Shown piece after piece: positions 56,059-63,936 of a stretch of 64,000 nt of DNA. How positions within the stretch are numbered: position 1 is the first letter of the stretch; the number at the start of each line of letters is the position of its first letter. Location of the stretch: contig CBDBMJ010000001.1 in the NCBI GenBank assembly GCA_965207455.1, forward strand, positions 1,376,001 through 1,440,000, read 5' to 3'. A model generated the notes under the pieces. The model saw only the letters and a program-made list of their open reading frames with translations. It searched no databases and was not told the DNA's origin. The position numbers and the translations under genes were made by a program. Origin of the DNA: Bdellovibrionota bacterium. Lineage in GTDB: Bacteria > Bdellovibrionota > UBA1018 > CAIPTA01 > JAALKR01.

Positions 56059-57075
56059 GCTACTATCGGCCTATAGGCTGTCCTAGAGCTACGCACTATT
56101 GCCATAATCCAAGCGAAATTCTTATGGCTCGCATAAATGAAGTGTTTACGATAATATTTATTTCCAATGGCATTCAACTATATTGATAGAAAAGATGTTG
56201 AGGAAATTCATCAGTGCATTTCAAAAAAAGCAATGGGGACTAATGACCCGGTAACTCCATCTGGTCTGAAAAGCCTTCATTTATTAGAATCAGCAATATC
56301 TAGACAATACACTTCTATAGGTACATTGCTAAAATACAACACTGTAGAGAAACTTGCAGCAACTATTTTATTTGGCATTTCTAGAAACCATCCCTTTCAT
56401 AACGGTAACAAAAGAACTGCACTTGTTTCCTGTTTAGTTCTGCTGGAAAGAAATTATTATTTACCTAAAAAAGAACGTAACGTTACTCATAAAGATTTTT
56501 ATGATCTAGTATTAGCAATAGCTTCACCAAGAAAAAATATAAATAAAAAAGAAGCGGCTCTTCGTCGTATTGCACTTAATGAAGGATTACGAAAGAATGA
56601 ATTTCGTCGATACAAAGAGCAATATCCAAGAGACGACGATGATGAGTTAGATATTATTGCTGATTGGATAGGGCGTAAAACAAGAAAAGCTAATATGCAG
56701 GATAAGGTTCTCACTGTTAATAAATTAAAAAAAATACTGCAAAATCAAAAATTAAAGAAAATGCTGCAAAAACAAAAGCTGCCCGAAATTACTATTGAGA
56801 TAAAAAAAGGCAAATTGAAGATAATGCAGGATATAAATATTTTTAAAAAAATAAAGCATTCCATGAGTTGCTCTAATGAACATATGGAGTTAAATGCAAA
56901 TAGGGTAAGGGAAATAAGAAAGAAATTTTCATTAACTCCTGAGCACGGAGTAGATTCAACAGTATTTTACTCTAAAGACATAGTTATTGACAGTATCTTA
57001 TCTGAATATAGTAATATTCTGAATAAACTTTCAAAAACATAAGCTGTAAGCTACTATCGGCCTATGGGCTTTCCT
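56059..57075. mobile_element. ~1 kb inserted cassette bounded by 26-bp direct repeats
   Basis: GCTACTATCGGCCTATAGGCTGTCCT (56059-56084) vs GCTACTATCGGCCTATGGGCTTTCCT (57050-57075), 24/26 identical. Confidence 0.65.
56167..57042 (+). CDS. Fic/Doc family (death-on-curing type) protein with C-terminal extension
   Basis: LLESAISRQ and HPFHNGNKRTA (Doc-type Lys in the Fic motif); AT-rich. Confidence 0.88.
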   Translation: MAFNYIDRKDVEEIHQCISKKAMGTNDPVTPSGLKSLHLLESAISRQYTSIGTLLKYNTVEKLAATILFGISRNHPFHNGNKRTALVSCLVLLERNYYLPKKERNVTHKDFYDLVLAIASPRKNINKKEAALRRIALNEGLRKNEFRRYKEQYPRDDDDELDIIADWIGRKTRKANMQDKVLTVNKLKKILQNQKLKKMLQKQKLPEITIEIKKGKLKIMQDINIFKKIKHSMSCSNEHMELNANRVREIRKKFSLTPEHGVDSTVFYSKDIVIDSILSEYSNILNKLSKT

Positions 57076-60000: not shown

Positions 60001-60267
60001 GAAAGAGAAATTATCAACCGAATCCAACAGCGAAGAAAGTCCATGAACTTCCACCTTGCAGATAGAATTCAAGTGCAGTGGGTGGGGGAAAATACTACCC
60101 AAGAAGTTTTACAAAAAGAGTCCAAAGCATGCGGCATGATTAGCAATGAAGTATTAGCTGTGGAGTGGGTAGAGAAAAAAATACAGGATTTAGCTGACCA
60201 GGAAAAAGTTAAACTTACGGAGCAGGAGTGGTTTGCCTTTTCCCTACAGCAATGGAAGGAGAAATAA
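57064..60267 (+). CDS. ileS: Isoleucyl-tRNA synthetase, type 2
   Basis: [48 protein letters not shown]; long C-terminus. Confidence 0.97.
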
Positions 60268-60269
60268 AA

Positions 60270-61064
60270 ATGAAACAGTACCTAGACCTACTAAAGGACG
60301 TATTGGAGAAGGGAGAAAGGAAGGGGGACCGCACGGGCACGGGCACACAAAGCCTCTTTGGCTATCAAATGCGTTTTCCCTTGGAGGAGAGTTTCCCCCT
60401 AGTGACCACAAAAAAATGCCACCTACACTCCATTATTCACGAGCTTCTATGGTTTTTAAAAGGGGATACCAACATCCAGTACCTAAAAGAAAATAAGGTG
60501 CGGATTTGGAACGAGTGGGCAGATGAAGATGGAAACTTAGGTCCCATATACGGTCACCAATGGCGATCTTGGCCTACTGGGGATGGGAGGTCTATCGATC
60601 AAATGAAAGGCGTAGTGGAGGAAATACAAAGCAATCCTGATTCGCGTAGGTTAGTGGTAAGTGCATGGAATGTGGGAGACTTGGACAAGATGGCCCTTCC
60701 CCCCTGCCATGTGCTCTTTCAGTTTTATGTGTCCGAGGGTAAGCTCTCCTGCCAGCTCTACCAAAGAAGTGCGGATATTTTTCTGGGTGTGCCTTTCAAT
60801 ATTGCCAGTTACTCGCTCTTAACCATGATGGTGGCTCAAGCCTGCAACCTCAAGCCGGGCACGTTTATCCACACTCTAGGGGATGCCCACCTCTATCAGA
60901 ACCATTTGGAGCAAGCTCAAGAGCAGCTCAAGCGCGAGCCCTATCCGTTGCCCACCATGCATTTGAATAAAAAGGCGCGGGACCTTTTTTCTATGGAAGA
61001 AAAAGATTTTGAGTTGAAGAACTACCAGTGCCATCCGCCTATTTCGGCACCGATTGCTGTGTAA
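60270..61064 (+). CDS. thyA: Thymidylate synthase
   Basis: DRTGTG, ELLWF, MALPPCH and [14 protein letters not shown] motifs. Confidence 0.98.
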
Positions 61065-61219
61065 ATGGATTTTTTTCAGGGGGGGCTTAAAGGGGGTACT
61101 GAAAAACGTGAAGGGGCAAAAATGAGATGCTTTCTTACATCTCCTAAGACCCTAAGCGCTTTCGCCTCTAAGCCTTTTCGCCCCTTCGCCGTGTACTCTA
61201 TACCGTTATAGCAAAGAAA

Positions 61220-61483
61220 CTATGTGGTAATAAAATCGTGGGCACGAACAGTTTTACGACCGTTTGCCTTTGCTCGACCTGCAGCTTGGGTAATGTGCCA
61301 GTGCAATATTTCATTTAGGCCAGTAATTGCATCAGAGGATGTATTACAGCCAAAGTTCCGTATAGTGGTTTTCACCTTACTGCTCACAGCAAGAGTCTCT
61401 AAGGTCTTTGTTGTACGCTTAGGGGTTCTTGTTGTTTTTGTTGTTTTCGTTGTTCTCTTTGTTCCGGTTTTTTGTCTTGCCAT
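61220..61483 (-). CDS. Bacterial histone-fold protein with a basic N-terminal tail
   Basis: TLAVSSKVK..NTSSDAITGLNEIL..AAGRAKANGRKTVRAHDF with the RxTxxxxD signature; AAGGA RBS before the ATG. Confidence 0.88.
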   Translation of the reverse strand: MARQKTGTKRTTKTTKTTRTPKRTTKTLETLAVSSKVKTTIRNFGCNTSSDAITGLNEILHWHITQAAGRAKANGRKTVRAHDFITT

Positions 61484-61588
61484 ATCTAATATTTCCTTTC
61501 ATGAAATTAAGACGAATGTTTATAACGTTAATAACTATGTAACAGACTAAAGGGTAAATGCTTGTTTCTCACAGGTCAAAGAAAAAAA

Positions 61589-61624
61589 GCAAATAATGCA
61601 AATAATGCAAATAATGCAAATAAT
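61589..61624. repeat. 9-bp intergenic tandem repeat (GCAAATAAT) x4
   Basis: Four perfect units between the divergent histone and response regulator genes. Confidence 0.9.
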
Positions 61625-61717
61625 GGCAGCACACTGCTTCTTTAGGCAAAATTCCAGGGTTCGATTAGGTCTAGGAATCCCATTTGAAAGTTGCTATAAT
61701 TAAATAAAATAAGTTTT

Positions 61718-62350
61718 ATGAATAATGAAGCAAAAAAATATAAAGTCCCACGTATTTTAATTCTGGACGACAACAGCGATTTAGTGGACGTGTGTGCAGA
61801 CACGCTCCACGAGCTATACCATGTAATCAAAGCCACCTCTCCCTTTGAGGCTCTCAATTTAATGCTGGGAAGCAAAGGTGCCATAGATTTAATCCTTTCG
61901 GACTATATTATGCCTGGTATGAACGGGATAGAGCTTATAAAAAGGCTTCGTAAGGAAGGAATATATACACCAGCCATTCTATACTCTGGAAAAAAGATTG
62001 AAGAGCAATCGGATGAGTTTATTAAAATCATGGAGAAGCCATTTCGCATGAAAGAGTTAATGGAGGAGGCAGCCCGGGCCATTCATGTTATCCAGCAGGA
62101 CAGGAATTTTTCTGGAGAGTTCTCCGGTGCCCTCAAGCAACTGGATACAGCTATTCACAGTTTAGAGAAATTTCTAATGCACAAGCATAAAAACTTTTCA
62201 TCCTTAACTCCAGAGATGGCTCTTATTGCCCTAAAGAGCGACAGTACCTATGATGTTTTTGTGTCTTGGCATTCCCTCAAGCAAATGCAATTAACGATGA
62301 CGAGACCGTCTTCTGACCCGTCTGACCCGCCCGTTTCGCTTCCCACCTAG
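61718..62350 (+). CDS. Response regulator receiver with helical C-terminal domain
   Basis: ILILDD, LSDYIMPGMNG, YSG and EKPF motifs. Confidence 0.88.
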   Translation: MNNEAKKYKVPRILILDDNSDLVDVCADTLHELYHVIKATSPFEALNLMLGSKGAIDLILSDYIMPGMNGIELIKRLRKEGIYTPAILYSGKKIEEQSDEFIKIMEKPFRMKELMEEAARAIHVIQQDRNFSGEFSGALKQLDTAIHSLEKFLMHKHKNFSSLTPEMALIALKSDSTYDVFVSWHSLKQMQLTMTRPSSDPSDPPVSLPT

Positions 62351-62946
62351 AGGTCGGCAGTAATCCCCACCTTGATGGCTTCCCAGTTATGTTTATTATC
62401 AAGATCCCTGCTAGCTCCGTTATTACTTATCTCGCCATAACTTAAAGAGTCGTAGCTGAGACTGAGTTTTATAAACGGTGCTACGGTGAGTGCGGCCATC
62501 AGGCGAATTCCTGCCGGGCTTGTAACTTCATCTCCACCTAAGTTTCTAATATTATCAAACGTATATGCACCAATGGGGGAGTAGACTCCCATAAAAAATA
62601 AGGGGCCAACGTGAATAGAGGCTGCCCCACCCACAAGGTAACCGCTCCCTGAAATATCCGTATTACTTGATTCATTGAAAGTCCTAAACTGCGAGGAAAC
62701 ATGATACTCAAGGTAGGGGCCTATGGATAAAAGAGGGGTAACACTAATTCCTGGGCGAACATAAAAGCCGTAAGTGGTGGCTAGACGAGAGTCCAGGCCA
62801 TCATCCTGTGCGTAGCTACCCACTCCCGCAAAAAATCCTCCATTGAGGCCTAAATTGCCTAAGGCATACTGGGGAGCAAGCAAAAAAATAAGTATTATGG
62901 ATATTCGAAACATTGGGTTCTCCTTTTTGTTATTTACTTTGACCAT
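62347..62946 (-). CDS. Putative outer-membrane beta-barrel protein
   Basis: Signal peptide (MFRISIIL..YALG) and about eight amphipathic strands. Confidence 0.6.
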   Translation of the reverse strand: MVKVNNKKENPMFRISIILIFLLAPQYALGNLGLNGGFFAGVGSYAQDDGLDSRLATTYGFYVRPGISVTPLLSIGPYLEYHVSSQFRTFNESSNTDISGSGYLVGGAASIHVGPLFFMGVYSPIGAYTFDNIRNLGGDEVTSPAGIRLMAALTVAPFIKLSLSYDSLSYGEISNNGASRDLDNKHNWEAIKVGITADL

Positions 62947-63276: not shown

Positions 63277-63936
63277 ATGAAAAATCGAAGCAATAAAAAT
63301 CTAACAACGGTGGTAGCAATGATATTTGCAATTGCCATAACGTCGCCAGTATATGGACAGGAGGAAAATCCTGCTTTAGATAAAACAGCCGAAGTAATCG
63401 TCAAAATAGTAGAAAATGCTGCAAATTTGGGAAAGGCAAAGGGCAAAGAATTCGAGGAAACAATAGTAAAAGCAGTTTCAGAATCGATGACTGAAGTAAT
63501 AACAGTATTCGGACAATCAATGGCAAAAGCAACAGCAGAGGCACTTGAAGAAACAGCGAAAGAAGCACTGGCTAATTTCGTATCGAAAGAAAAATCAACT
63601 GTTGTGGTAGCCGGCATATTGGAACAAATGTGCGGTAGTGGTGAGCCAACACAATTGTCTGACCTCAATAATAAATCAATGCCAGCATCAGAAAATGCAT
63701 TTCAATTTTCCTGGGTTATATTGGCATCTGGACAACTCCAAGGCAAGGCAGTCTCTGTAAAATCCGATCCTCCTCACTCCAATAATAAAGTACTTATTAA
63801 TGGTTCTCCGATCAATGAGGGCAACGACTTTGATGTGTGTTATGACTATTCAAATCCTGAGAAAATGGTTGATGATGTTGCAAGTAAACTTACTGAGGAC
63901 GCTAGAGGTCTTATTTCAAGGGCATACGCTAAGTAA
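63277..63936 (+). CDS. Hypothetical secreted protein
   Basis: GGAGG RBS, signal peptide, helical N-terminal half. Confidence 0.65.
   Translation: MKNRSNKNLTTVVAMIFAIAITSPVYGQEENPALDKTAEVIVKIVENAANLGKAKGKEFEETIVKAVSESMTEVITVFGQSMAKATAEALEETAKEALANFVSKEKSTVVVAGILEQMCGSGEPTQLSDLNNKSMPASENAFQFSWVILASGQLQGKAVSVKSDPPHSNNKVLINGSPINEGNDFDVCYDYSNPEKMVDDVASKLTEDARGLISRAYAK

Follow-up and report, generated by a model that had tools for sequence, protein, structure and literature searches.

A 64,000-nucleotide stretch of a Bdellovibrionota genome (hereafter the window) carries at 61220..61483 a short open reading frame, which an earlier note, made from the letters alone, described as a bacterial histone with a eukaryote-like N-terminal tail. 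The locus raises the question of what kind of histone is encoded here, whether the tail is part of the protein, and whether anything in the tail goes beyond the addition of positive charge.

The reading frame is real and has 87 codons. It lies on the minus strand (61483..61220), which had been left unsaid; the plus-strand frame there is full of stops. An opposite-strand frame at 61224-61550, longer than the histone frame and preferred over it by one ORF caller, is regarded as a putative shadow frame. An in-frame TGA is located six codons 5' of the histone ATG, and a Shine-Dalgarno sequence AAAGGA (61494..61499, minus strand) lies 10 nt 5' of it. Its pairing with the 16S 3' end amounts to -5.9 kcal/mol, a value exceeded in 35% of 1035 long ATG frames. 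Codons 2-32 contain no ATG, GTG or TTG, and the first candidate is the GTG at V33, inside the fold. Both earlier claims on this point, a ribosome-binding site before the ATG and no other start ahead of the fold, therefore hold, and the ATG alone is a plausible start in this sequence. A protein that begins at an internal GTG and leaves the tail untranslated is hardly credible. Such errors occur, since the database entry of HLp, the histone of Leptospira perolatii, is over-extended (77 versus 63 residues, PMC12701072). Here, however, two internal GTGs pair with the 16S 3' end at -2.9 and -1.9 kcal/mol only, initiation at V33 would remove part of the conserved start of the fold, and a start of the M-A-basic type is the norm of the family.

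The histone gene is flanked by the convergent thymidylate synthase gene thyA (60228-61064, plus strand, PF00303) and the divergent response-regulator gene (61718-62350, plus strand, PF00072). A terminator-like hairpin of 7 pairs (61143-61124) with a T run follows it on the minus strand (61114..61143); the terminator search gave 2 sites versus 0.8 expected in shuffles. Because of this hairpin and the convergent thyA, the gene is probably transcribed alone. No promoter-like site was found on its strand. Codon usage places it at percentile 89 by CAI and 70 by log-odds, in a genome whose bias is too weak to rank expression. A contig of sequencing run X1 spans 60200-62400 with 0 differences to the window, and this match is not independent because the contig may be the source of the assembly. 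None of the runs listed as carrying the sequence is an RNA data set. A perfect 9-bp tandem repeat of 4.1 copies (61589..61625, Tandem Repeats Finder) occupies the intergenic region towards the response regulator, about 105 bp 5' of the histone start; its copy number may be variable, with a possible effect on expression. No neighbour genes common to histone loci were seen in 7 loci with frames read by eye. Elsewhere in the window, a Fic/Doc-family gene (56167-57042, plus strand, PF02661) of low GC (0.31-0.36) lies between gapA and ileS. A 219-aa protein at 63277-63936 (plus strand) scores weakly and below the cut-off with PF00808 (E 0.076); as a histone it is probably spurious, and the genome search with histone profiles missed it.

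The fold occupies codons 28-87 (61220..61402, minus strand). Its best solved match by sequence is HLp (9QT0, E 7.3e-9), with HBb of Bdellovibrio behind at E 1.3e-5. Pfam returns 0 families for the whole 87-aa protein and 0 for the fold alone, and NCBIfam only the archaeal histone model (E 0.013). The AlphaFold2 model, built on a 53-row alignment, has helices at 34-43 and 50-73 and a short 3-residue turn near 81-83. Its pLDDT is 92-96 in the segment 31-80, falls to 83 in the last 7 residues and is 64-69 in residues 1-30. In Foldseek, HLp comes first (rmsd 0.7 Å over 56 columns, 50% identity), HBb second and archaeal HTkC third. Helix 2 is shortened and helix 3 is cut to one turn, as in α3-truncated histones, and the alignment to HLp is gap-free. 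The earlier identification of a histone fold is well borne out by these matches.

The same alignment carries the class assignment. Face-to-face (FtF) histones are described as predicted tetramers with R, N, R, T and D at offsets 0, 4, 6, 8 and 13 (Schwab et al. 2024, PMC11390915). The protein has the RxTxxxxD motif, or RD clamp, at R76, T78 and D83, and the FtF dimer-dimer residues R70 and N74 precede the clamp arginine by 6 and 2 positions. Together with F84, these residues are invariant in 53 aligned homologues. The presence of both interface residues sets the protein apart from the dimer histones of the HBb type. Basic residues of helix 1 are also kept (K36, K38 and R42, corresponding to K15, K17 and K21 of HLp). 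By alignment and model, the 87-aa protein is a bacterial histone of the FtF class already described, and the earlier comparison with the face-to-face type of Leptospira was correct, as HLp is nearest and the tetramer residues are retained. The chain extends three residues beyond F84, as in most of its subfamily. Probably, therefore, the interface arginine cannot pair with the C-terminal carboxyl in the manner of the salt bridge described for a Haloferax protein (PMC11390915).

A model with four copies scores 0.91, with the best control at 0.00; at least 71% of contacts are common to its runs, and the pLDDT of the partner is at least 77. The score mark is reached by 20/30 solved pairs and 1/23 single chains. 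The scored copy contacts its dimer partner and, via residues 65-74 and 80-86, a second copy through the predicted FtF interface. Since one copy only is scored, the value may rest on the dimer alone and does not demonstrate a closed ring of four; since like complexes are already solved, it indicates likeness only.

The tail comprises codons 1-27 (61403..61483, minus strand). Translation gives 12 T, 6 K and 4 R and no acidic residues, exactly as noted earlier, with a net charge of +10 as compared with +4 for the fold. Four tails would thus bring 40 positive charges to a core of +16. Residues 1-30 have no secondary structure in the AlphaFold2 model and no confident contacts in the four-copy model, so the tail is predicted to be disordered. 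A 9-bp tandem repeat (61425..61464, 4.4 copies, 87% matches, Tandem Repeats Finder) encodes its T-T-K/R units; the only differences among three successive units are a synonymous change and a K-to-R change. Stretches rich in K, T and A, including Thr-Thr-Lys units, are present in several unrelated proteins of the same genome. The tail is the only 27-residue segment of such composition in the six frames of the genome, which carries little weight with thresholds set from the tail itself.

How unusual such a tail is was judged from homologues in three overlapping sets, with leaders counted up to the residue that matches L31 (30 residues for the query). Set A holds the 119 homologues listed (125 found, 120 listed with the query). 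Set B holds 80 genome loci kept of 488, with starts chosen by Shine-Dalgarno score and three reset by hand (L042, L049 and L089), and set C the 106 of 150 representatives that passed a single-motif filter. The median leader has 9 residues among the listed members of set A and 8 in set B, and the leaders are net positive in 108/119 and 73/80, respectively. Long tails, with at least 20 residues and a net charge of at least +5, are found in 11 of the 119 listed, 5 of the 119 having at least 28 residues and +8; set B has 4 long and 2 very long ones. The long-tail rule selects 20 members of set C, 4 of them (P0154, P0243, P0252 and P0262) doublets or bad starts. When an alignment of 13 long-tailed proteins served as query, 1962 matches were obtained; 110 of the 120 listed were new, and among these at least 101 have long basic tails and at least 39 have 28 residues or more. 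This last set was selected for long tails and yields no frequency. Across homologues, leaders range from 3 to more than 40 residues, mostly 7-10.

Most leaders are thus short and basic, with long basic tails as a common minority. This reconciles the account of Schwab et al. (2024, PMC11390915), in which tails on bacterial FtF histones are common, mostly positive, not conserved and called 'H3-like', with those of Hocher et al. (PMC10627809) and Hu et al. (PMC12701072), in which long tails are mostly absent. It also means that the tail is less remarkable than first proposed, basic tails on such histones having been reported in 2024. Fold charge and tail charge show a weak negative correlation (rho -0.24), which we set aside because the rows are related. 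Many proteins of 114-135 aa (P0123-P0132 and others) match the FtF profile twice and appear to be doublets of the FtF fold. Three records titled archaea (L093, L105 and L109, one of them Iainarchaeota) carry bacterial-type histones of the query subfamily with 4-residue leaders.

Conservation of the tail in homologues had been named beforehand as a check on its importance, and here the expectation fails. The nearest homologues among the matches listed, P0002 (78% identical) and P0003 (74%), group with the query in two quick trees (SH-aLRT 92 and 80), and their leaders of 12 and 14 residues differ from its tail in sequence. On a quick tree of 190 rows with duplicates dropped, long tails are scattered with 11 changes, only 2 of them forced by starred branches; with 57 columns and few supported forks, gain, loss and transfer are indistinguishable in these trees. 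The tail could then be a near-neutral expansion, lengthened by slippage of the 9-bp unit and tolerated with no function of its own. The array within the tail, the second array upstream of the gene and the short leaders of the nearest homologues agree with this, as do the five FtF histones of other genomes of the same order, all with leaders of 8-10 residues. Nevertheless, long basic tails occur in more than 100 homologous clusters and contain no acidic residue ahead of the fold. The differences between repeat units, synonymous or K-to-R, point the same way, although two are too few to test. We therefore consider a tail devoid of function unlikely.

What stands out in the tail of the query is the threonine content alone. 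The Thr fraction of its leader, 0.43, is the highest seen, followed by 0.33 in L110 (a record titled Bacteriovoracaceae, with a 39-residue leader and a TPAK word) and 0.29 in P0330. Among the selected long tails listed, it is at least 0.2 in 12/101 and at least 0.3 in none.

The proposed likeness to histone H3 does not survive the same comparison. The first six residues after Met share 3/6 identities with the H3 hexamer quoted in the earlier note, a match that 12% of tail shuffles reach, or 43% with the first Ala fixed, i.e. the level of chance. It recurs in 12/199 homologues of sets A and B and in 17/110 of the long-tailed matches listed, and is absent from the nearest homologues. Ala1 (104/119) and Lys4 (61/119) are common among the listed members of set A because of MAKKK-type starts; the start M-A-R-x-K is found in 1/119 listed there, 0/80 in set B and 1/110 listed in the long-tailed set. 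The first 30 residues give 0 matches at E ≤ 10 among PDB sequences, for a short, biased query of little power. The TPKR word, compared earlier to H1 motifs, fares no better: [ST]P[KR][KR] appears in 6.9% of shuffles of the tail, a borderline value, and [ST]P[KR] in 0/101 of the other long tails listed. Long FtF tails are also poor in S/T-P dipeptides, with 7 in the 101 listed versus 20.7 expected. On the other side of the balance, words of the type [ST]P-x-[KR] are found in 6/101 long tails and in L110, P0009, P0015, P0136 and P0172. Overall, the earlier reading stands for a histone of the FtF, Leptospira type whose tail is basic, predicted to be disordered and, by the start-site evidence, translated; it does not stand for a tail that is surprising or specifically H3- or H1-like.

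A lysine code of the eukaryotic kind, in which dedicated writers would methylate or acetylate defined lysines of an H3-mimicking N-terminus (A-R-x-K4), accordingly seems to us very improbable. Besides the partial H3 identity, it could draw on the single GNAT acetyltransferase of the genome and on Asgard archaeal tails, which are acetylated by own enzymes (bioRxiv 10.64898/2026.07.02.735847). The search for modifying enzymes that the earlier note proposed gave a divided answer. GNAT and Ser/Thr kinase genes are present; searches of the genome, which is 94.7% complete, recovered no SET, HDAC or SIR2 (sirtuin) gene and only a partial PrmA match. SET is present in 4/11 genomes of the order, none of them with a long-tailed histone, which also speaks against dedicated writers.

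The threonines invite another possibility, in which the 12 Thr are substrates of a Hanks-type kinase and a PP2C phosphatase, and phosphate cancels the charge, loosens the chromatin and is possibly read by FHA domains. The genome has two Pkinase matches (one PknB-like, 672 aa), with kinase domains at G000:C1:977947-978756 and 1531753-1532286, one PP2C (C1:752617-753225) and seven FHA matches, and HupB, a mycobacterial nucleoid protein, is reported to be phosphorylated and acetylated (PMC5676037). However, these enzymes are common (Pkinase in 11/14, PP2C in 8/14 and FHA in 6/14 control genomes; with GNAT the range is 6 to 14 of 14), and no kinase, PP2C, FHA or GNAT gene adjoins the histone gene. 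The scarcity of S/T-P in long tails and the frequency of TP-basic-basic words in shuffles argue against it as well, and the threonines stem from a repeated codon unit whose Thr-Thr-Lys product recurs in unrelated proteins of the genome. A phospho-switch is thus unlikely in spite of the extreme Thr fraction. Slightly more doubtful still is the stronger proposal that the Thr content is functional as such, with kinase, PP2C and FHA proteins writing, erasing and reading phosphothreonine on a wrapping histone, independently of the eukaryotic lysine code.

The genome (2.38 Mb) has exactly two histone-profile matches. The second histone (G000:C1:293248-293436, plus strand) has 62 aa, is of the HBb or bacterial-dimer type with PF00808 above the cut-off, and has a strong Shine-Dalgarno sequence and no tail; the FtF-interface R and N are missing. 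Three HU/IHF genes are present in the same genome. Among 11 genomes of the order, the HBb type occurs in 11/11 and an FtF histone also in 6/11, with the long tail only in the query genome. A genome of the same family (88% complete) yielded only the HBb-type histone and no FtF orthologue. With 52-55% identity to the query, the FtF histones of the order cluster apart from it, among records titled Bdellovibrionota; for this reason a transfer of the query gene is possible on sequence grounds.

Further proteins of the genome deserve mention. One (L117, G000:C1:1593912-1594415, minus strand, 167 aa) combines a 75-aa domain, duplicated internally, with roughly 90 residues of K/A/T repeats on its C-terminal side. 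It has no Pfam family and no PDB match, its ESM Atlas clusters at 0.95 are unnamed, and its recognition value of 2035 is below the mark of 2300. Its domain presumably resembles the crenarchaeal chromatin protein CC1, and we regard it as a candidate for a further nucleoid protein. Another (L118, G000:C1:1071868-1072548, plus strand, 226 aa, no Pfam family) includes Lys/Thr/Ala repeats amounting to about 135 residues; its C-terminal part is acidic, and its composition is histone H1-like. In other genomes of the order, the short-tailed FtF histone of L003, L004 and L005 has neighbours which we take to be topoisomerase VI subunits. In genomes of the same class (L011, L018, L019 and L025), long open frames lie upstream of HBb-type histones; those of L011 and L018 visibly contain many cysteines and look similar to the ZZ-histone arrangement described in the literature. 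An ATG located directly ahead of the fold in L011, L018 and L025 points to a separate start there.

We suggest that the tail adds DNA-binding charge to a DNA-wrapping FtF tetramer, and that the charge matters and the sequence does not; by analogy and modelling, we hold this to be probable. The gene, the histone fold, the FtF signature and the predicted disordered basic tail are what sequence and models provide directly. In the proposed mechanism, two dimers would join via the end of helix 2, loop 2 and short helix 3 to form, as in HLp, a tetramer, here of about 39 kDa, and the tetramer would wrap about 60 bp of DNA with no sequence specificity (PMC12701072). The four tails would leave the tetramer beside the DNA-binding start of helix 1. 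They may hold adjacent or neighbouring DNA by charge, thus raising affinity and compaction, similarly to the PAKK tail of HupB, a basic tail needed for nucleoid association (PMC5676037). The FtF histone would work beside the tail-less HBb-type histone and the three HU/IHF proteins. The tail itself would be a low-complexity segment that grows and shrinks by expansion of short repeats, which is supported by the 9-bp array and by the K/T/A-rich stretches in other proteins of the genome. The charge model is supported by the conservation of charge, in the leaders of sets A and B, where the sequence is not conserved. Wrapping does not require a long tail, given that HLp manages with a short leader and that the leaders of most homologues span 7-10 residues. 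Charge alone leaves the 43% threonine content unaccounted for.

The histone class and basic tails are already known, and what stands out here is the extreme threonine content. Both characterised bacterial histones carry short leaders only, and no study that deletes the tail of a bacterial FtF histone or maps its modifications was found in the openly accessible literature searched. If long tails merely add charge, the gene is an ordinary example of its kind; if the Thr-rich tail is phosphorylated, it would be the first regulated histone tail in bacteria. Haliangium ochraceum is a cultured species. A homologue named from it (P0341) has a 29-residue tail, and this organism could be a host where such a tail is examined in cells.

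Among known systems, HLp (PDB 9QT0-9QT2, PMC12701072) is the closest. The short helix 2 and truncated helix 3 are common to both proteins. With HLp numbered as chain number minus two, which reproduces the residues named in that paper, R49, N53, R55, D62 and F63 correspond to R70, N74, R76, D83 and F84 and are conserved; R49, N53 and R55 are named there as conserved tetramer residues (Hu et al. 2025). The interface residues S52 and T61 are replaced by A73 and H82. Residues at the DNA contacts of HLp are kept or still basic in the query (S35, K36, K38, R42, T48, K77 and T78). Unlike the query, with its 27-residue tail and three extra C-terminal residues, HLp has F63 as its last residue and an N-terminal leader of only six to seven unresolved residues. 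It is described as the sole histone of a genome lacking HU, and its gene lies beside smc (Hu et al. 2025), whereas the query genome has a second histone and three HU/IHF genes and the query lies between thyA and the response regulator.

HBb (Bd0055, PDB 8CMP, 8FVX and 9EZZ), the dimer histone of Bdellovibrio bacteriovorus, has the same α3-truncated fold (40-41% identity, rmsd about 1 Å) but lacks the long tail and, in our alignment and according to PMC11390915, the FtF-interface R and N; its counterpart here is the separate 62-aa gene. Like the query, the bacterial FtF histones with tails in Schwab et al. (2024, PMC11390915) have a positive N-terminal tail that is not conserved ahead of the FtF fold, and the phylum of the query, probably Bdellovibrionota, is listed there; the query differs from the tails of this kind measured here by its Thr fraction. 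In eukaryotic H3 and the tailed nucleosomal histones of Asgard archaea, a basic disordered N-terminal tail likewise precedes the histone fold. However, nucleosomal chains are of another histone class, with a Foldseek E of about 0.1 and an rmsd of about 2.5-4 Å to the query, and H3 tails are conserved in sequence, while the tail of the query is not. Mycobacterial HupB, with its H1-like PAKK/KAAK tails, resembles the query in carrying a disordered basic low-complexity tail on a nucleoid protein (PMC5676037). It has the HU fold, and its much longer tail is C-terminal and rich in Ala and Pro rather than Thr; no homology is implied. By analogy, we consider the tail of HupB the best functional model for that of the query.
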